Below, in pieces: positions 348-14,178 of a stretch of DNA of 33,378 bases (positions are counted from its first letter, which is position 1; every line of letters starts with the position of its first letter). Origin of the DNA: Escherichia phage EC.P3; sequence record PQ657771.1; one strand, 5' to 3'. A program made the translations under genes and the position numbers. The notes under the pieces were generated by a model that worked only from the letters and a program-made list of their open reading frames with translations, was not told the DNA's origin and made no database searches.

Positions 348-753
348 GGCTTTCACCATTAAAAAGTCGCTTGTAAGCATCAATGTCTCGTTTTGCTTCA
401 CCAAGCTTTCGTCTTAATTCCATGTTTTCTGATTCAAGCTTTTCCATGTCTTGCTGGTATCGATCGCGGTGTTCTTTCCATGCTTTTCGATACGCCTTCA
501 TGTATGTCGTATTGGCCTTTCTCTTTGCCTGACGAACCGCATGGTGGTTTTTCACAAACCAGTCAGGGTCGTTAAATGCTGCTCTGGCGCATGTATACCA
601 ATAATTTGTTGCCTCCCTGTTTAGCCAATAAATACTGATAAATGGCAACCGGATAGACACCATTTTTCGTTGTGACTCTTTCTCGCCAAACATGTGTCCT
701 TTTTTGATGCTAAGGCCAAATCCAGGTTGAATTAAAAGCATTGTCAGCCTCAT
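340..753 (-). CDS. hypothetical protein with basic coiled-coil C-terminus
   Basis: Start moved to internal ATG at 753 preceded by AGGAGGG and ATGA-overlapping the stop of 750..1046; no recognisable family. Confidence 0.45.
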   Translation of the reverse strand: MRLTMLLIQPGFGLSIKKGHMFGEKESQRKMVSIRLPFISIYWLNREATNYWYTCARAAFNDPDWFVKNHHAVRQAKRKANTTYMKAYRKAWKEHRDRYQQDMEKLESENMELRRKLGEAKRDIDAYKRLFNGESHA

Positions 754-1046
754 GCCGCCCTCCTGACGCCCTGCCCGATCGCTATCAATGCCGCTTTGGA
801 TACGGTAGTAAACATCCGTCGAGGACTGATGAACGGTCGCCAAATCAGCAGCATGGAGCCTTTGCTGTTTCCCTTCTTCTCCAGCCCCGTCGATGGTTCG
901 ATAAAATTAATCCGTCCATCAGTGATAATGCGAACTTCGTCGACACTCTCCAGAGCCTTGCTGAACCATCCGACTGACATATCCTCTGGCACAAGCATCA
1001 CTACCGTCTGTCGCTGTTGTATGCACTGCTCAGCGGCTTTTTCCAC
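750..1046 (-). CDS. hypothetical protein
   Basis: 98-aa ORF downstream of cII in the slot where lambdoid phages normally carry replication genes; no recognisable family. Confidence 0.4.
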   Translation of the reverse strand: MEKAAEQCIQQRQTVVMLVPEDMSVGWFSKALESVDEVRIITDGRINFIEPSTGLEKKGNSKGSMLLIWRPFISPRRMFTTVSKAALIAIGQGVRRAA

Positions 1047-1277
1047 CCACGGCCTGATATTGCTGTACGGTGGGTTATTCCAGATTGCACCGTGGCTTAC
1101 CCACTCAGAATTGAGCGCGTCGTCGGCCTCAGTTAGCCAGTGAGCACACAGAGCATTTTTGTCGCTCGCTGCCGAATCCAGCCAGAATCCAAACTCAATA
1201 TCCAGTGCATCAAAAAGCCAAAGCGGCGTTTGCCAGCAGTCCTTGTCGTGTGCTGGCGTATTTGATTTGATAGTCCC

Positions 1278-1574
1278 TCAGAATTGCATATCAATTTGCT
1301 TAAAATCCTCGGTGGCGGCCGGGGATTTTTTCTTTGTGATTTCATCAAGCGCATACTTAAAAGCCCTGCTAATCGGACTGATGTCTGATGCCATTCCGAA
1401 AGCACACAAGACCGAAGCAATAAATCTCCAGTCCGTTCTGCTTATCTTCGATTCATGACAGCCAATCATCTTTGCCAGACCGCGCTGGGTAAGCGTTGAT
1501 AGGTTGATGAGTAAATCTGTTTCTGCGCGATCAACGTCACGCTGTGATAGTTTGCTGTAACTTGTTCGTTCCAT
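1278..1574 (-). CDS. cII: CII-like transcriptional activator
   Basis: Translation ends KKKSPAATEDFKQIDMQF, matching the lambda CII C-terminus KKRPAATERSEQIQMEF; correct position after cro/nutR. Confidence 0.8.
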   Translation of the reverse strand: MERTSYSKLSQRDVDRAETDLLINLSTLTQRGLAKMIGCHESKISRTDWRFIASVLCAFGMASDISPISRAFKYALDEITKKKSPAATEDFKQIDMQF

Positions 1575-1612
1575 TTCTTAAGATTTCCAATAGTGAATAG
1601 TTAGTTGAAAGG

Positions 1613-1630
1613 TATGCGTGGAAACGCATA
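1613..1630 (-). terminator. tR1-like hairpin between nutR and cII
   Basis: Perfect inverted repeat TATGCGT-GGAA-ACGCATA; weak U-tract, so probably rho-dependent or partial. Confidence 0.35.
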
Positions 1631-1659
1631 TGGCCTTAGTTGGTCAGATATCTTGGGAC

Positions 1660-1705
1660 TCGCTTTTCAGCGACGTAGGACGAATGTCCGTTGTTACAAA
1701 GAGCG
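1660..1705 (-). promoter_or_regulatory. nutR (boxA 1691..1705, boxB 1660..1673)
   Basis: Minus-strand CGCTCTTTGTAACAA (boxA-like) followed by hairpin TCGCT-GAAA-AGCGA (boxB-like), immediately after the cro stop; mirrors nutL. Confidence 0.6.
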
Positions 1706-1715
1706 GCTCCGCTTA

Positions 1716-1931
1716 TTAAGCGGCTTTGTGTTCCGGCGGGAACACGTCATCAAGACTTACTTTTGCGCCTAACTTATTTAGGCACGCAACAAGAGCACGG
1801 CATGTTTTAAGGTCTGGGAAGCGACGACCAGATTCCCAATGTCCGATAGCTCCCTGTGTGCATCCAACTGCCTTAGCAAGTGTTGTTTGAGAGATATTCA
1901 GTGACTCTCGATATTTTCGTAGGTTGCTCAT
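1716..1931 (-). CDS. cro: Cro-like HTH repressor
   Basis: Start moved to ATG 1931 (MSNLRKYRESLNISQTTLAKAVGCTQGAIGHWESGRR) preceded by GGAGGG; XRE-type HTH; divergent from CI-like gene. Confidence 0.7.
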   Translation of the reverse strand: MSNLRKYRESLNISQTTLAKAVGCTQGAIGHWESGRRFPDLKTCRALVACLNKLGAKVSLDDVFPPEHKAA

Positions 1932-2047
1932 ATGCCCTCCATAGTAACCTCGAATAAAAAATACAATATGTACTTTCCAAATACAAGCAAAAATACACAT
2001 TGTGCATGGATGGTTCCAGTACAGAGCGTAATAATAAGGACATGAAA
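1932..2047. promoter_or_regulatory. oR-like divergent promoter/operator region (pR and pRM equivalents)
   Basis: 116-bp AT-rich spacer between divergent cro and CI-like genes; contains CAATATGTACT, a motif recurring at pL, and repeated AATACA units. Confidence 0.5.
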
Positions 2048-2338
2048 ATGAAATGGTATGAACTGGCTAGATCCAGAATGAAAGAGCTCGGCATAACTCA
2101 AGAGAAGTTAGCCGAAGAGCTAGGTATGACGCAGGGTGGGATTGGACACTGGTTGCGCGGATCTCGTCATCCATCTCTTAGTGATATTGGTGTGGTGTTT
2201 AAATACCTTGGTATTGATAACATATCATTCAACCACGACGGGACATTTTCACCTGTTGGCGAATACTCATCGGCCCCAGTTAAAAAACAAGTGATAGGAA
2301 GTAAGTTTTATGTTGACGGCACAGTCAACTTGGCATAG
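2048..2338 (+). CDS. CI-like HTH repressor, short form without LexA/S24 autocleavage domain
   Basis: Start at ATG 2048 (AAGGA 7 nt upstream); MKWYELARSRMKELGITQEKLAEELGMTQGGIGHWLRG is an XRE HTH; about 97 aa, too short for a C-terminal peptidase domain. Confidence 0.6.
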   Translation: MKWYELARSRMKELGITQEKLAEELGMTQGGIGHWLRGSRHPSLSDIGVVFKYLGIDNISFNHDGTFSPVGEYSSAPVKKQVIGSKFYVDGTVNLA

Positions 2339-2351
2339 ATTAATTAAACCA

Positions 2352-2412
2352 AGCCCAGCCCCGTTCGCAGACAATTGTTAATATCTGCATAACGGCTCTG
2401 GGCTATTTTTTT
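2352..2412 (+). terminator. long-range stem-loop plus U-tract between repressor and NYN gene (possible attenuator)
   Basis: AGCCCAG (2352..2358) pairs with CTGGGCT (2398..2404), enclosing an inner GCAGA/TCTGC hairpin, followed by ATTTTTTT. Confidence 0.4.
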
Positions 2413-2421
2413 GGGACTCTT

Positions 2422-3279
2422 ATGAAGAAAGCAGCAATTTTAATTGATGCGGGTTTTTTCATGCAGCGTGTTCATGCTACGCATCGTAAACACTTCGCCG
2501 AGCATGAACTGACTGCGCAATGCATAATGAAAGTAATATGGTCAATGGTTCTTTCCCATCTTAATGGAAAACGTCAATCACAAGAACGTAGGGAACCGCT
2601 TGAGCTTTATAGAATTTACTTCTATGACTGTCCACCACTCGACATTCAAACACGCCTTCCACTTCCTGAGCCTGGCAATAAGACGCCTGGTCGCAAGAAT
2701 TTCAAACTCGAAAAATCATATATTCTGAGAACGGAGCTGCATGAAGAGTTAAGAAAAACTCGAAAAACAGCCTTAAGATTAGGGAATCTTGTTGATAATA
2801 AGCGATGGCAACTAACTACATTCTCCCTTGATGCTCTGATGAAAGGAACGAAAAAATGGGATGAACTGACAAATGATGATTTTTACTATGACATCAAACA
2901 AAAACAAGTTGATATCAAGCTAGGGATGGATATCACGACTTTAGCTTATGAAAAACTTGTTGATGTAATTGTCCTTGTTGCTGGGGACTCAGACTTTGTG
3001 CCTGCCGCCAAACACGCCAGAATTAAAGGTATTGATTTTATTCTTGATCCACTAAGACAGAATGTTACCCCATCACTGTCAGAGCACATTGATGGAGTTC
3101 AGTCATACAGCTTGATATCAGGACTTGCCGATGCTTTACATGTTGAGCCAGACCCGGCACCTGACTGGTGGGAAGATCGAAAAAAAGGCAAGCCTAGAGG
3201 AAAAAACAATAGCGGTAAACGCAGGTATGGAAACACTCAAGCTGAGTCTGCAAAGAAACATCAAAGAAATAAACGATAA
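2422..3279 (+). CDS. NYN-domain (PIN-like) putative nuclease with Lys/Arg-rich C-terminal tail
   Basis: N-terminal AILIDAGFF and later VLVAGDSDFVPAAKHARIKGIDF are NYN/LabA hallmarks with conserved acidic residues; C-terminus KKGKPRGKNNSGKRRYGNTQAESAKKHQRNKR; in the cI-to-N interval. Confidence 0.75.
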   Translation: MKKAAILIDAGFFMQRVHATHRKHFAEHELTAQCIMKVIWSMVLSHLNGKRQSQERREPLELYRIYFYDCPPLDIQTRLPLPEPGNKTPGRKNFKLEKSYILRTELHEELRKTRKTALRLGNLVDNKRWQLTTFSLDALMKGTKKWDELTNDDFYYDIKQKQVDIKLGMDITTLAYEKLVDVIVLVAGDSDFVPAAKHARIKGIDFILDPLRQNVTPSLSEHIDGVQSYSLISGLADALHVEPDPAPDWWEDRKKGKPRGKNNSGKRRYGNTQAESAKKHQRNKR

Positions 3280-3288
3280 TCCCATCAA

Positions 3289-3314
3289 CCCGGCCACCGA
3301 GCCGGGTTTTCTTT
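3289..3314 (+). terminator. rho-independent terminator after NYN gene
   Basis: CCCGGC-CACCGA-GCCGGG followed by TTTTCTTT, 10 nt after the stop. Confidence 0.7.
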
Positions 3315-3447
3315 GCCTCACGCCCCCACCTAAAGCACGCAATTCTGATCTCTCCTTACATCGCCGAGGCGATACACCCACGCTAAAAAACAACACTATT
3401 AAATACAAAGCGTTATAAAAAATCACCCCATTTTAGAACAAATTGTA

Positions 3448-3476
3448 TTGACCCAATAAAGTACATATCGTACTAT
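3448..3476 (+). promoter_or_regulatory. pL-like promoter overlapping operator-like inverted repeat
   Basis: TTGACC, 17-nt spacer, TACTAT; inverted repeat AGTAC-ATATC-GTACT overlaps the -10. Confidence 0.5.
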
Positions 3477-3522
3477 TTAACCGTCAGCAGGACGCTGTAA
3501 GCCAAACGGAGCAGACTGGCAG

Positions 3523-3568
3523 GCTCTTTAAACAACGTCGAACACTCGACTACGTGGCTGAAAAGCCA
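3523..3568 (+). promoter_or_regulatory. nutL (boxA 3523..3535, boxB 3555..3568)
   Basis: GCTCTTTAAACAA (boxA-like) then TGGCT-GAAA-AGCCA hairpin with GNRA-type loop, about 100 nt upstream of N. Confidence 0.65.
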
Positions 3569-3666
3569 GATCACCCAACCATATAAGCTGTGGGATGCAA
3601 TGCCGAAGCAACCGTCTCAGGAGGAGCTTCGAGATTGCATCGCCAAAGTTTATTCGGGAGGAATCT

Positions 3667-3939
3667 ATGTCCAGAAAAACAGAATTTAAAGGCACCGCAG
3701 CTTCTCGCCGTAGAGCTCGTCGTGCAAACCTGCAAAGTCAGGAGGCGATCAGCTCTGACAAGCTACACAGGCCAACCCCTTCACGAGTGGTCTTACAATG
3801 CAAACGCAAACCAGTAATGAGAGCAGAAGTAATAACACTGACAACGTTGACCAGAAAATATGAAGGCTCAACTTGTCTTCCAAATGTAGCCATTTACGCG
3901 GCAGGCTACAGGAAATCCAAACAGCTGACAGCAAGATGA
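3667..3939 (+). CDS. N: N-type transcription antiterminator
   Basis: Start at ATG 3667 after GGGAGGA; arginine-rich motif TAASRRRARRANLQ; C-terminus LPNVAIYAAGYRKSKQLTAR matches the P22 gp24 C-terminus as recalled. Confidence 0.85.
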   Translation: MSRKTEFKGTAASRRRARRANLQSQEAISSDKLHRPTPSRVVLQCKRKPVMRAEVITLTTLTRKYEGSTCLPNVAIYAAGYRKSKQLTAR

Positions 3940-4033
3940 CTTGTGTTGGTCGCCAGAAAATGAAATTAGGCAGCAAACCACTTATTTGGGATGTGGGGGC
4001 CTTTTTATATCAATCAAACAGAAGGAGCATCCT

Positions 4034-4204
4034 ATGCAACAGTTCGCTATTGCAGGGGCGGCATCGGTTCGCCCTTTCAACCCGATTTTATCGGTACAGC
4101 ATTCACGAAAAAATATTTTAACCGGAGCAGACTTTAAACAACCAAGAATGAAAAGTTTGCTCGAAAAGCTTTGGGATATTTTGAAACAACAAGGCCGTCC
4201 ATGA
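4034..4204 (+). CDS. hypothetical small early protein
   Basis: ATG 4034 with AGGAG 6 nt upstream; 56 aa; first gene after N. Confidence 0.4.
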   Translation: MQQFAIAGAASVRPFNPILSVQHSRKNILTGADFKQPRMKSLLEKLWDILKQQGRP

Positions 4205-10549: not shown

Positions 10550-12355
10550 TTATTTGAATAAATATGGAATTACAATTGCCACAGAAAATGTTACAGGGTT
10601 ACTGTGACCATTTGTTATGTGTACGCGAATTTTATTTGAAGATAACACCTGCAATTGAGTTGTGGCAATAGCAGAAGCTGCACTTCTTGATGTTATCTTA
10701 ACACTTGCATTTACCATGTCTAACTTTTCTGTTGTTGTTATATCTTGATATACATTGACACCTGCTGGAACATCTTGGAATGTTATAGTCTGATTGTAGA
10801 AACCATTAAACAATACTGTTTTCCCATGGGATACACCAACGCCTGATCTTATTGTTGGTAACAGTGTAGAGTTATCAGATGATATAAATGGAAACCCTAA
10901 GTCACCATCTGGTGAGGTGTTATTATTAAAAACATCGACATGGTCAAGATAGGTTGCCCTAACCATGCTTAATGGCCTCTGGTTACTATTCCATGAGTCT
11001 GCTGGAGTAACAATTTTAGGCTTGAACACAAGATCTCGTATACCCCAAGAATCAATTGCTATACATCCGTTTTCAAGCCCTTTAGCATATACAGTGTTAG
11101 TTTCGTCCATGCTGAAAGACGTTGGCGTACCGACCAGTATGCGGGCATAAGCATACTTTTTATAAAATGCATCACCTGGAGTTGCAGCACCGCCCCGCCC
11201 AGTAAGACCGTTATAAATAGATTGGTCATCCATATTTTCAAAGTAACAAAATTTAAACGCTATATTTTGCGGTCGAATAAGTGCAGCAGAATCAGTACCA
11301 ACAACGTAATTCGTCCACCGTTCAAACGCCATGGCAATAAAATTAATCGGACCATTACCAGCAGCGCCTGATATTTTGAAAAATGTATCAAAATCAACAG
11401 ATCTTCCGCCTATAAACTTAATGTTATATGCCCGCTGTATATCTGGGCCATTTTTAATTGCAAGCCAATCTGTATCTATAAATGTTACGTAAAAAGAATT
11501 GATACCTTGACATGGAACGTCAAACCCAAGCCAAGAAGTGCGGTTTGTTTTAATATTACCATTTAATGTCGATATTCCTTTATTCGTACCGATAGTACCG
11601 TTTCCATACTGTGGAATTCCCTTTACAATGACATCAGATAAAAAAACATCCGAATTTTCGCATTGAATAGCATAGTCCCCAGGAACGTCACAATATAATT
11701 GACTTGACTCCGCTCCTATAACCTTATTAGTCATATCGCCAGAATATCCACGAATCTCAAAGCGCCTACCTCCATATACGAGCTTTCGTTTAATTGTAAG
11801 CACTGAACCAGGTGGGATTGTAATAATCAAATGATTTGGATAGGCTGCCATCATTTCTTCAACAGCATCTGAGTCATCAGCCACACCATCGCATGTTGCG
11901 CCATAAGCCTGAGGTGTTACTGCGAACACAGCATTCTGAATTGTTCCTCCTTGTGTTAGGGGTATCATGTCAGCCCCCTTTCCATCTCCAGTCGATGTTA
12001 TTTCCTGGCGAAGCTGATCAGGATCATACTTCAGCACATTGGGAAAATTGAACTGCTGCGAACCATGCGCATCATAAACAGCCATAGAATGGCCTTGCAC
12101 GGTAACGAATTTGGCAATCTGTCCGTTATATACCGGATATCCGGCAGCGTTAATGATTATTGGTTGCGAAACAGGAATGTGAGAACCGTCTTCGTTCTCT
12201 ACATAAACCTGAATCTGGTTTTCAGGATTTACCGGGTCAGTGTCAATTTTACCGATATAAATTTTGCCATTAGCTACGGCTTTAAAAGAACGCGCCATAG
12301 TGAAGAGTTGCGAAGGCATACTCACTACAACATTGGCATTTATTGAATCTGTCAT
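10550..12355 (-). CDS. tailspike protein: P22-type head-binding domain, divergent receptor-binding domain
   Basis: Start moved to ATG 12355 (GGAG 8 nt upstream); [59 protein letters not shown] closely matches the P22 gp9 N-terminus as recalled; remainder diverges. Confidence 0.85.
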
Positions 12356-12455: not shown

Positions 12456-13334
12456 TCAGTAGTTATGTACTGAAGGAGGTAATTCTTTATTCTTAAGTCT
12501 CATCCATGCGGAAAGATTCGTTGGTCCGTCTGGCTCATTGATATCAACATCTCGTGTGTGATTGATTAAAACGTCTCTCGCCATATCGATAATACGGGAG
12601 AACTCATAACCGCAGTCATGACATCTGCCGGAATAGTTCGATTGAATTTGTTTTAGCGCCGGATACAGTTCGCGGAATAATGCCTGTGAGCGGTTGGCAT
12701 AATCCCATAACCATACAAGGCTGTTTGCTTCTTTTGCAGAAAGCTCGTTGGTTTTCTTCTCTTGTTTGCCGATGAATTCACCTTCAAGCACTACCCTGTG
12801 GATGTACTCTACGGCTTGCGGGATTTGTTCAATTGAAAGTTCATCAATGCTGTCAATACCAAAACGCTGATGAACCATATTGTATGCATCGTCATAGCGA
12901 AGTCCTTTCTTTCCTACCAGCATGTTTACTGCATCGCGTAGCGGTGTTCTTTCCTCAACAGTGGTTTTCTTTCCTTTTACATACTCGCCATGTTTGCGAA
13001 TTGAAGGCAGAACTTCTGCTGTTACCCACTTGCGGAATTTGTGCGGGACTGAACCTTTATTGACTGCATCGCGGCAGCGCAGAACCAATGTATACATACC
13101 TGATTCGCTCACAATGCTTAGATTCTGCTCACCACCAAGGGTGTAACTTAAAGTTACTCCCTTTTCATCGTCATCAAGTGCAGTAAGCGCCTTGCGTGAG
13201 TTAGTCAGGGTTAAAGCATCACAAACATCTTTTGCTACAAACCACGGCTCACCGCACTTGTTGATGACGCGGATTTCACTGTCGCCGAATTTGAAGATGG
13301 TGAAATCGTTTTGTGCCTTTGCTATACTTTTCAT
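12456..13334 (-). CDS. ant: antirepressor (BRO-N domain)
   Basis: [33 protein letters not shown] is a BRO-N signature; downstream of arc as in P22 immI; start set to ATG 13334 (AGGAAAT upstream), alternative TTG at 13400. Confidence 0.7.
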
Positions 13335-13396
13335 GTCAATATTTCCTAATCCGATTTGTTGATGCCGAAGCCCTGACTGTTCCCGCAGTTGGGGCT

Positions 13397-13666
13397 TCAA
13401 CGTTTTTCCACTTCATTTTGAATTTGCTTAAGTAGCATATTTGTCTCGTCAAGCCTCTTGTTAATACGGTCAAGGCTTTCTACTAAATCGTTATGTGCAT
13501 GTGATACTTCGTAATTTGAGACTGATTTCTTTTCCTCTATCGTCTTTGTCAATCGTTCCCCTGATTGATACATATTGATTAACGATGTAAAAATCACGAG
13601 CAAGCAAACTACAATGATTGCGCCAGACAAAAATTGTAAAGAACGATCAAGCAATGACACCTTCAT
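13397..13666 (-). CDS. small membrane-anchored coiled-coil protein
   Basis: One N-terminal hydrophobic helix ([19 protein letters not shown]) then heptad-like charged segment; coupled to the arc stop; lies between arc and ant. Confidence 0.5.
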
Positions 13667-13815
13667 ACCGCCACCCCCTCTCTCTTCAGGCTGTCTATCA
13701 GGCGCTTGATAACCTCTGAGTTAAACGACCTGCACTCTTCCTTTGCCTTGCTACCGATAGCATCCTTTAACGACTGCGGCATCCTTACCAAAATCTTACT
13801 TATTTCTTTCTCCAT
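13663..13815 (-). CDS. arc: Arc-like ribbon-helix-helix repressor
   Basis: Start at ATG 13815 with GGAGGG 5 nt upstream; MEKEISKILVRMPQSLKDAIGSKAKEECRSFNSEVIKRLIDSLKREG matches the Arc fold and RS.NSE motif. Confidence 0.75.
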   Translation of the reverse strand: MEKEISKILVRMPQSLKDAIGSKAKEECRSFNSEVIKRLIDSLKREGVAV

Positions 13816-13929
13816 GTTACCCTCCACACAAACAACTCTTTTCGAATACAAAAGATAGCAAAGTGAGTATATCTAGTCAAAATTTTTTTGCATACACTTT
13901 GATATCAAATTGAATACCAAAGGTGTGAT
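13816..13929. promoter_or_regulatory. divergent Pant/Pmnt-like promoter-operator region
   Basis: 114-bp AT-rich spacer between divergent arc-like and mnt-like genes; inverted repeats CAAAGTG (13859..13865) and CACTTTG (13895..13901). Confidence 0.5.
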
Positions 13930-14178
13930 ATGGCAAAGGGTGTGTCAATTTCTCCAACTACGGTAAGAATCCCTGAATCTTTACGCGAGGCTCTTGCTGT
14001 CAGAGCATCAAAAAATGGTCGCTCTGTTAACTCCGAGATCGTCATGATTTTGCAAGCCGCGATTGATGAAGATAGGTCGCCAAAGTCAGTTGAGTCATTT
14101 GCTCAGCAAGAAGCTGACAAATTCAAAGAGGCGCTGCTTGAGACGCTAAAGACCATGTATGGTAAGGATGAAAAATAA
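13930..14178 (+). CDS. mnt: Mnt-like ribbon-helix-helix repressor
   Basis: 82 aa; RIPESLREALAVRASKNGRSVNSEIVMILQAAI and C-terminal KFKEALLETLKTMYGK parallel P22 Mnt, including the tetramerisation tail. Confidence 0.8.
   Translation: MAKGVSISPTTVRIPESLREALAVRASKNGRSVNSEIVMILQAAIDEDRSPKSVESFAQQEADKFKEALLETLKTMYGKDEK

Follow-up and report, generated by a model that had tools for sequence, protein, structure and literature searches.

The subject of this study is a gene for an NYN-domain protein (2422..3279) and its surroundings in the 33,378-nt sequence of Escherichia phage EC.P3 (PQ657771.1), the whole of which is called the window below. Positions 2295..3286 form a self-contained mobile accessory cassette (a "moron") that lies in the hotspot of lambdoid phages between cI and pL and replaces rexAB there. 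The cassette carries what its sequence identifies as a sigma-70-type promoter of its own, a leader hairpin that sequence comparison relates to the lambda late terminator tR', and a single open reading frame (ORF) whose product is modelled as folding into a complete NYN (PIN-like) nuclease and has acidic residues that do not vary among the aligned homologs. A role of the cassette in phage exclusion is likely. We assign a probability of roughly one half to the specific proposal that the nuclease acts in superinfection exclusion or abortive infection on behalf of its carrier and is attenuated by the leader. The cassette and its parts are as follows.

2295..3286, plus strand: mobile NYN cassette (promoter, leader and ORF), delimited by comparing lambda with the prophage of E. 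coli 214-4
2313..2341, plus strand: sigma-70-like promoter (TTGACG, 17 nt, TAGATT), from a promoter scan
2348..2411, plus strand: leader RNA, a two-tier hairpin (17 bp in three segments, 12-nt loop) followed by a U-tract, from folding, covariation and a covariance model
2422..3279, plus strand: ORF of 285 amino acids (aa) matching Pfam NYN, encoding an NYN-domain protein that is a predicted metal-dependent endonuclease

The edges of the cassette were defined in E. coli 214-4, whose prophage carries a cI close to that of lambda. There, the match to lambda ends at the cI stop codon (lambda 37223) and restarts at the rexB stop (lambda 35826; 4866 in the 214-4 locus extract). The 988 bp between these two stops are the NYN cassette of the window, exactly swapped for lambda 35827-37222 (rexA-rexB). 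Because lambda homology breaks precisely at the cI and rexB stops, the cassette is an allelic replacement of rexA-rexB. An earlier note made from the window alone (the sequence-only reading) had placed the gene in a slot equivalent to that of rexAB, and the 214-4 prophage bears this out to the nucleotide. We know of no earlier description of this exact substitution. The gene lies between cI and pL/N in the same orientation as cI, which is the RexAB-type position. In the genomes of E212 and 2B8, a 231-aa LexA-family CI is followed by 127 bp and then the NYN gene, and the succession of an S24-type repressor, the NYN gene and early-left genes also occurs in Proteus phage Brookers, a Brenneria prophage and a metagenomic lambdoid contig. 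The guanine-cytosine content of the cassette is 0.42, compared with 0.465 for the whole window. Its own promoter, sharp mosaic edges, deviant base composition and variable location are those of a moron.

The predicted protein matched the Pfam family NYN (PF01936) with 36.8 bits (E 6.8e-9), above the curated cut-off of 24.2. The alignment is partial and covers aa 158-205 only, because about 90 residues (roughly 70-160) are inserted inside the NYN domain. In PHROGs the protein belongs to phrog_5783 (1.5e-119), to which no function is assigned there. An AlphaFold2 model had a predicted local distance difference test score of 88.4 and a predicted template modelling score of 0.80, and its comparison with known structures by Foldseek agreed with an NYN (PIN-like) fold; the predicted structure has the three-layer alpha/beta arrangement of this fold. 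Searches of PDB sequences with the single protein and with a profile returned no significant relative, so the structural match comes from fold comparison alone. A scan of NCBIfam gave sub-threshold matches only, including TIGR00288 below its cut-off. The NYN assignment itself is not new, as the same gene in E212 and 2B8 is annotated in RefSeq as "NYN domain-containing protein".

Database searches identified 7,035 relatives of the protein, and 56 of these with 42-86% identity were aligned to assess conservation. Six aspartates (D9, D69, D164, D170, and D189 and D191 of GDSDF) are invariant across the 56 homologs, and on conservation they are candidate metal-binding acidic residues. The motifs QKxVDxKLGxD and GDSDFVPAAK are conserved in the same alignment, and a PxxPxWW segment is conserved in the family. 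Bare NYN domains such as MARF1 (5yaa), the LabA-like protein VPA0982 (2qip) and PF01936 are about 150 aa long, whereas this protein has 285 aa and differs from them by the approximately 90 residues placed between strand 2 and the QKxVDxKLGxD motif, the PxxPxWW segment and a variable, often basic tail. The nuclease fold and the intact-looking acidic motifs that had been read from the translation were thus both supported, and the lack of an NYN/PIN fold in the predicted structure, named beforehand as grounds for refutation, was not observed. The Lys/Arg-rich C-terminal tail, also pointed out in that reading, is present, but it varies among homologs and was modelled with low confidence.

A structured element with a U-tract had been noticed upstream of the gene, and it proved to be real. 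The leader folds with -25.9 kcal/mol (z -3.7), none of 200 shuffled sequences was as stable, and the U-tract UAUUUUUUU lies directly 3' of the hairpin. On these sequence features it is a tR'-type intrinsic terminator, predicted to end transcription and spanning approximately +4 to +64 of the cassette transcript. The 131 bp separating cI and the NYN ORF always accompany the gene (55 phage records each). In the Proteus phage, the leader hairpin is 93.5% identical to that of the window, compared with 73.6% for the NYN protein. Homologs down to 38% protein identity have the same layout of a promoter, a two-tier hairpin after no more than about 10 nt, a U-tract, and a start codon 0-42 nt further on. 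Under a strict criterion, a hairpin with a T-run was found at 27 of 34 distinct NYN loci, as opposed to 3 of 119 other ORFs in the same loci. The possibility that the hairpin is merely the terminator of cI was considered and rejected, as the hairpin stays with the NYN gene where the genes in front are unrelated and a promoter always stands before it.

Covariation supports the structure of the leader. Thirteen distinct gammaproteobacterial leaders align almost without gaps, 96.8% of the cells of the 17-bp structure are paired, and 12 of the 17 pairs have changed on both sides. None of 500 shuffles reached this covariation score, and control structures slid along the alignment pair at 26-45%. 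Nine leaders from gut viral contigs gave 95.1% pairing and five compensatory pairs (0/500 shuffles); these contigs are inferred to be Bacteroidota-like from their TAnnTTTG-type promoters only. A covariance model built from the gammaproteobacterial set scores 82.4 bits on the window leader. At each proteobacterial locus tested, it finds a leader on the coding strand immediately before the NYN gene, and it detects leaders outside the seed, including those of Halomonas and of Acinetobacter and Pseudomonas plasmid copies. A promoter-terminator leader precedes NYN homologs in all lineages examined, namely Proteobacteria, Firmicute phages and the Bacteroidota-like contigs. The proteobacterial model had no match at E<=1 at the positions of the Firmicute or Bacteroidota-type leaders, and no sequence motif is common to the three types, which share architecture alone. 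As the models do not cross-match, we describe the three leader types as sharing position and architecture and do not claim homology. To our knowledge, the coupling of an NYN gene to a leader resembling tR' or Teg147 across lineages has not been described before.

The promoter keeps a fixed relation to the hairpin. In 23 of 23 distinct proteobacterial loci a -35 element TTGAC stands 34-36 nt before the start of the leader model, and from this fixed distance transcription is predicted to start about 4 nt before the hairpin stem. In the window, the inverted repeat TTGACggcacaGTCAA overlaps the -35 element and spacer of the cassette promoter (2313..2330). A perfect inverted repeat of the form TTGAC-N5-9-GTCAA covers the -35 element and spacer in 9 of the 23 loci, and this repeat may be an operator for autoregulation. 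Sites equivalent to the 2313..2330 repeat were recorded in six loci (labelled L003, L006, L044, L055, L064 and L086). Imperfect TTGAC...GTCAA repeats occur in other loci, and several have extra TTGACA copies about 33 nt upstream.

The leader covariance model also matched lambda 44718-44781 with 63.3 bits (E 9e-16) and the equivalent segment of E212 (11581-11644), the sequence context of which shows it to be the end of a roughly 194-nt transcript from a pR' of lambda type. We take these segments to be tR', the terminator of lambda 6S RNA that is read through by Q-modified polymerase. Lambda tR' and the window leader have about 67% identity by manual count, with compensatory changes. E212-type phages therefore hold two related hairpins, the NYN leader and a tR' copy; the window has no tR' copy, which was lost along with Q. 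The pR'-tR'/6S unit of lambda and StxS have the layout of the cassette, a constitutive promoter followed by a short terminated RNA. The lambda pR' RNA is 194 nt long and has a Q-loading site followed by the late genes, whereas the cassette transcript would start at the foot of the hairpin and continue into the nuclease gene, and nothing resembling a qut element was recognized in the cassette. Lysogens make abundant short terminated pR' RNA, and its equivalent in Shiga toxin (Stx) phages, StxS, is a functional small RNA (sRNA) (Sy et al., PMC7547250).

A second known RNA was reached through the Firmicute leaders. When positions 1500..4200 of the window were compared with Rfam, there was no match at E<=1, RF03535 (TEG147) included; the link was found only by scanning the leaders of distant NYN homologs. 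RF03535 scored 52.6 bits on the NYN leader of Javan85, just under its gathering score of 56.1, and 36.2 bits on that of a Dorea phage. A scan of reference genomes for the TEG147 core placed the element directly upstream of NYN family members in S. borealis, S. azizii, S. intermedius and Streptococcus sp. In S. schweitzeri (a relative of S. aureus), S. simulans, S. rostri and Sutterella the NYN ORF is gone and the element stands as an orphan. About 30 nt of the ORF, encoding "KVAILIYGE", are kept in S. schweitzeri. Because TEG147-type elements persist in this way without the NYN ORF, Teg147 of S. aureus has the appearance of a leader that has lost its gene. This sRNA of 60 nt is classed as bona fide in S. 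aureus from transcriptome data, the source table recording no experimental validation, and its expression is ascribed to a genomic island. A 60-nt RNA fits termination of the leader at its U-tract in vivo, indirectly. TEG147 elements and the window leader have the same layout of promoter, two-tier hairpin and U-tract, and homology between them is not claimed.

Members of the NYN family are accessory genes that stand alone in prophages and plasmids. Distant homologs occur as single genes at six or more kinds of accessory location. An E. albertii prophage has one opposite Q, and in P. syringae, Halomonas and Burkholderia phiE202 the gene adjoins an integrase. It separates repressor from integrase in Streptococcus phage Javan85, is flanked by two recombinases in Shewanella, lies beside toxin-antitoxin (TA) loci on Acinetobacter and P. 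aeruginosa plasmids, and neighbours glmS in a Proteus chromosome. The exact 285-aa protein was found on at least 1,000 contigs and in 48 Stx2a-converting phages. Among 5,426 complete E. coli genomes, 74 have the full gene. Approximately 200 of 275 matching E. coli genomes, mostly O157:H7, have only its first (5') 41%. In E. coli O157:H7 86-24, the leader and the first ~350 nt of the gene stand behind a lambda-like cI, and the stub is fused to a broken integrase at thrW (tRNA-Thr/proA). This locus is a decayed prophage that still holds the promoter-leader unit; about 200 other genomes, mostly O157:H7, were assigned to a stub of this kind by matching coordinates. The ORF of the 214-4 locus (NZ_CP025840, 4001..4858 of the extract) is 100% identical to the intact 858-bp gene. 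RefSeq splits this intact ORF into a pseudogene fragment and a 117-aa "NYN domain-containing protein", which is probably an error of annotation that goes back to the truncated O157 allele.

The genes and sites that surround the cassette, and two genes of a segment elsewhere in the window, are listed here.

1278..1574, minus strand: cII, a neighbouring gene
1716..1934, minus strand: Cro-like helix-turn-helix (HTH) protein, a neighbouring gene
2045..2338, plus strand: truncated cI-like repressor of 97 aa, HTH only, its frameshifted tail reading into the cassette promoter (Pfam HTH_3, 4e-11)
3287..3314 (hairpin 3287..3308), plus strand: terminator-like hairpin after the NYN gene with a T-rich tail, equivalent to tImm, from a terminator scan
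3448..3476, plus strand: pL-like promoter (TTGACC, 17 nt, TACTAT), from a promoter scan
3523..3568, plus strand: nutL-like site, with boxA-like GCTCTTTAA at 3523..3531 and a boxB-like hairpin with a GAAAA-containing loop at 3555..3568, read from the sequence and comparable to lambda/rrn boxA and lambda boxB
3667..3939, plus strand: N antiterminator (Pfam N_peptide PF25694, 2.2e-32)
12456..13400, minus strand: Bro-N/Ant-like antirepressor, by eye from the translation
13930..14178, plus strand: Arc/Mnt-like ribbon-helix-helix protein, by eye from the translation

The features said to follow the gene (pL, nutL and N) were all recovered. Two other statements of the sequence-only reading held in part. 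The gene was described as ending with its own strong terminator, and a hairpin with a T-rich tail is indeed present. The rexB stop maps to about window position 3287 (by offset from another alignment), and since lambda homology restarts at that stop, the 3287 terminator is lambda backbone outside the imported cassette; it was rejected as a cassette part for this reason. The gene was also described as co-oriented with and downstream of a CI-like repressor, which is correct for orientation and position, but the repressor is a 97-aa HTH stump. Compared with E212 and 2B8, a 407-bp deletion has removed the whole lambda-like S24 peptidase domain of cI. The deletion (junction 2290/2291) starts exactly at the mosaic boundary of the lambda-type C-terminal domain (YEYPVFSHVQAG...) and ends 3 nt before the stop, and the reading frame continues into the NYN promoter. 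Position 2290/2291 was rejected as an edge of the cassette, as it marks a window-specific deletion and the true edge is the cI stop codon. The 97-aa protein had no exact match in a collection of 15 billion proteins.

The rest of the genome is altered as well. The window corresponds to the reverse complement of an E212-like genome, closed and circularly permuted. The parts shared with E212 are about 100% identical, and the window is also close to 2B8. Relative to E212, about 10 segments are gone, including O, P, NinB, Q with tR', the holin, the endolysin and part of Rz. The junctions lie at approximately 314, 742, 1274, 2290, 3334, 3988-4008, 6446, 7918, 12627-14158, 31966 and 32136, with 1-9 nt of microhomology. 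Other differences include a 1-nt indel in a Dam-like methylase (742..1275) and, at 12456..14178, a 1.5-kb segment without an E212 counterpart that is a P22 immI-like region. Just past the tImm-like terminator, E212 (2992..3033) has 52 extra bp without a window counterpart (~3334) that look like a local duplication around CTAAAG/CTAAAC. With O, P, Q and the lysis genes gone, the genome would not be a viable phage on its own, being unable to replicate or lyse, and it may be a defective element, a laboratory construct or an artefact of assembly or curation. The NYN cassette of the window is 100% identical to that of intact phages.

The cassette was compared with several named systems. The interval between cI and N is a mosaic hotspot that houses rexAB and bstA (Owen et al., PMC8585504). 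Lambda rexA-rexB has the same slot and orientation as the cassette, and the downstream terminator, pL and N are kept in the 214-4 prophage. RexAB consists of two genes and is described in the literature as a sensor with a membrane ion channel. The cassette has one gene for a predicted soluble nuclease with no sequence or fold relationship to RexA or RexB: the single ORF matched NYN only in Pfam, and its PADLOC matches were weak and of NYN type. In lambda, rexAB is co-transcribed with cI. The simple co-expression with the repressor that the slot had suggested was not upheld for the cassette, where the sequence places a tR'-type hairpin and a separate promoter between cI and the ORF. BstA of prophage BTP1, encoded downstream of cI, is a single-protein abortive infection factor in the same cI-N hotspot, and HepS of Gifsy-1, a stand-alone HEPN RNase that cleaves tRNA, is a prophage-borne abortive infection factor like the role proposed for NYN. 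Both have demonstrated phenotypes, differ from NYN in family (KilA-N/BstA and HEPN) and, as far as the papers state, have no promoter-proximal terminator leader. HEC-09, which is embedded in Hma systems, is an NYN-type predicted RNase that was proposed to be antiviral on genomic context; it has an N-terminal HTH-like domain.

In the proposed mechanism, transcripts from the cassette promoter would start about 4 nt before the hairpin, and read-through transcripts from cI would meet the same leader hairpin. Both would mostly stop there, making a hairpin RNA of about 60 nt the main product, and nuclease mRNA would arise solely by read-through of the terminator. Because both kinds of transcript would mostly stop at the leader, a potentially toxic RNase would be kept very low, with low-level or conditional synthesis. 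The protein would cut RNA in a metal-dependent manner, as characterized NYN domains such as MARF1 do, and the cassette would serve genetic conflict through exclusion, abortive infection or addiction for the prophage or plasmid that carries it. Control would lie with the leader, which would act as an attenuator and whose RNA may in addition be bound or cut by the nuclease. The small leader RNA itself may be only a by-product; alternatively, it may serve as a decoy or antidote for the nuclease, be its substrate in autoregulation, or act in trans as an sRNA.

Several observations weigh against this proposal. No defence model in PADLOC-DB 2.0 matched the protein significantly, and the best matches were weak and partial (HEC-09, E 2e-4 over 46 residues; an NYN model, E 1.4e-3). 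HEC-09, distantly related and the one NYN defence candidate tested elsewhere, proved not to be protective (Payne et al. 2024 preprint). Literature searches on NYN in connection with prophages, defence, lambdoid phages or anti-phage activity found no study of this NYN family and no published phenotype, and the Vassallo 2022 screen does not mention NYN; mentions of "NYN" in one paper were mostly names of codon libraries and were set aside. The leader may do nothing beyond strongly insulating the gene or damping its expression. The frequent loss and truncation of the gene fits a dispensable accessory gene and proves nothing about function. With the repressor truncated and O, P, Q and the lysis genes gone, the natural expression state cannot be read from the window, and the description of the gene as lysogen-expressed cannot be inferred here. 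The putative active site was judged from conservation and the fold match, and the next-best structural matches of the model were FEN-like DNases. These last matches bear on the idea that the protein is instead a DNase (flap or structure-specific) that attacks incoming or replicating phage DNA rather than RNA, which we consider improbable.

The most probable of the alternatives is that the cassette is a toxin with an RNA antidote, comparable to ToxIN and other type III TA systems, in which abundant terminated hairpin RNA binds and neutralizes the NYN RNase. Loss of the element, or shut-off of host transcription by an infecting phage, would let the labile RNA decay and free the nuclease, resulting in addiction, abortive infection or both. 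In ToxIN, a promoter is followed by a structured RNA, an intrinsic terminator and then the gene for the RNase. The cassette has this order as well, both are found on mobile elements, and the order is conserved from Proteobacteria to Firmicute phages and Bacteroidota-like contigs. The leader keeps its specific two-tier architecture with no drift to a generic terminator, family members adjoin other TA loci on plasmids, and the orphan leaders of S. schweitzeri, S. simulans, S. rostri and Sutterella have outlasted the ORF, as antitoxins often do. However, Tandem Repeats Finder identified no tandem repeats in 2200..3500, unlike all known type III antitoxins, and the leader is a single hairpin. The protein belongs to a nuclease family unrelated to ToxN, CptN and TenpN, the three leader types share no sequence motif beyond their architecture, and the related lambda tR' hairpin is a plain terminator without an NYN partner. 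We regard an RNA antidote as possible but doubtful.

Two further explanations assign the cassette to phage regulation. The leader may act as an antitermination-sensing switch that mimics pR'-tR', so that the nuclease is made only once polymerase has become terminator-resistant, triggered for example by the antiterminator of an invading or induced phage, and then aborts infection. The relationship of the leader to tR', which is read through by Q-modified polymerase, would fit such a switch, as would the abundance of short terminated pR' RNAs in lysogens and the position of the cassette next to Q in the E. albertii prophage. However, Q and N depend on qut and nut sites in cis, and by inspection the leader has no nut-like boxB and the promoter is unlike the Q-binding element of lambda. 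If transcription begins about 4 nt ahead of the hairpin, as predicted, a sigma-dependent pause at +16 cannot be accommodated, and the same architecture occurs in Firmicutes and Bacteroidota-like contigs, where Q and N of lambda type are unexpected. We regard this switch as highly improbable. It is also quite unlikely that the protein is a regulatory RNase of the phage itself, one that processes or degrades phage transcripts (for example early-left or cI) and tunes the choice between lysis and lysogeny without acting against competitors. Such a role would suit a gene that several lambdoid lineages carry between cI and pL, within the immunity region, and NYN proteins such as MARF1 do act on mRNA stability. 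Against it, the same family and leader are found outside phage circuits (on Acinetobacter and Pseudomonas plasmids, beside integrases at prophage ends and at glmS in Proteus), and lambda-immunity phages manage without an NYN gene, with rexAB in its place.

A more general idea, which we put forward tentatively and think rather unlikely as a whole, is that a hairpin RNA of about 60 nt and an NYN nuclease constitute an unrecognized class of RNA-gated toxin or defence module across several phyla, either type III TA-like or sensing read-through, with lambda tR' (the 3' end of 6S RNA) and Teg147 as relatives or orphaned relics.

The interval between cI and N is a classic hotspot for exclusion genes, and the cassette is widespread yet uncharacterized. 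If the proposal of a defence or addiction RNase is correct, the prophages of pathogenic E. coli would have a further single-gene system, based on NYN, at their disposal, which would matter for phage therapy and for the ecology of Stx phages. Independently of this, the coupling of gene and leader in every lineage examined gives a principle of control and offers an origin or function for lambda tR'/6S RNA and Teg147.

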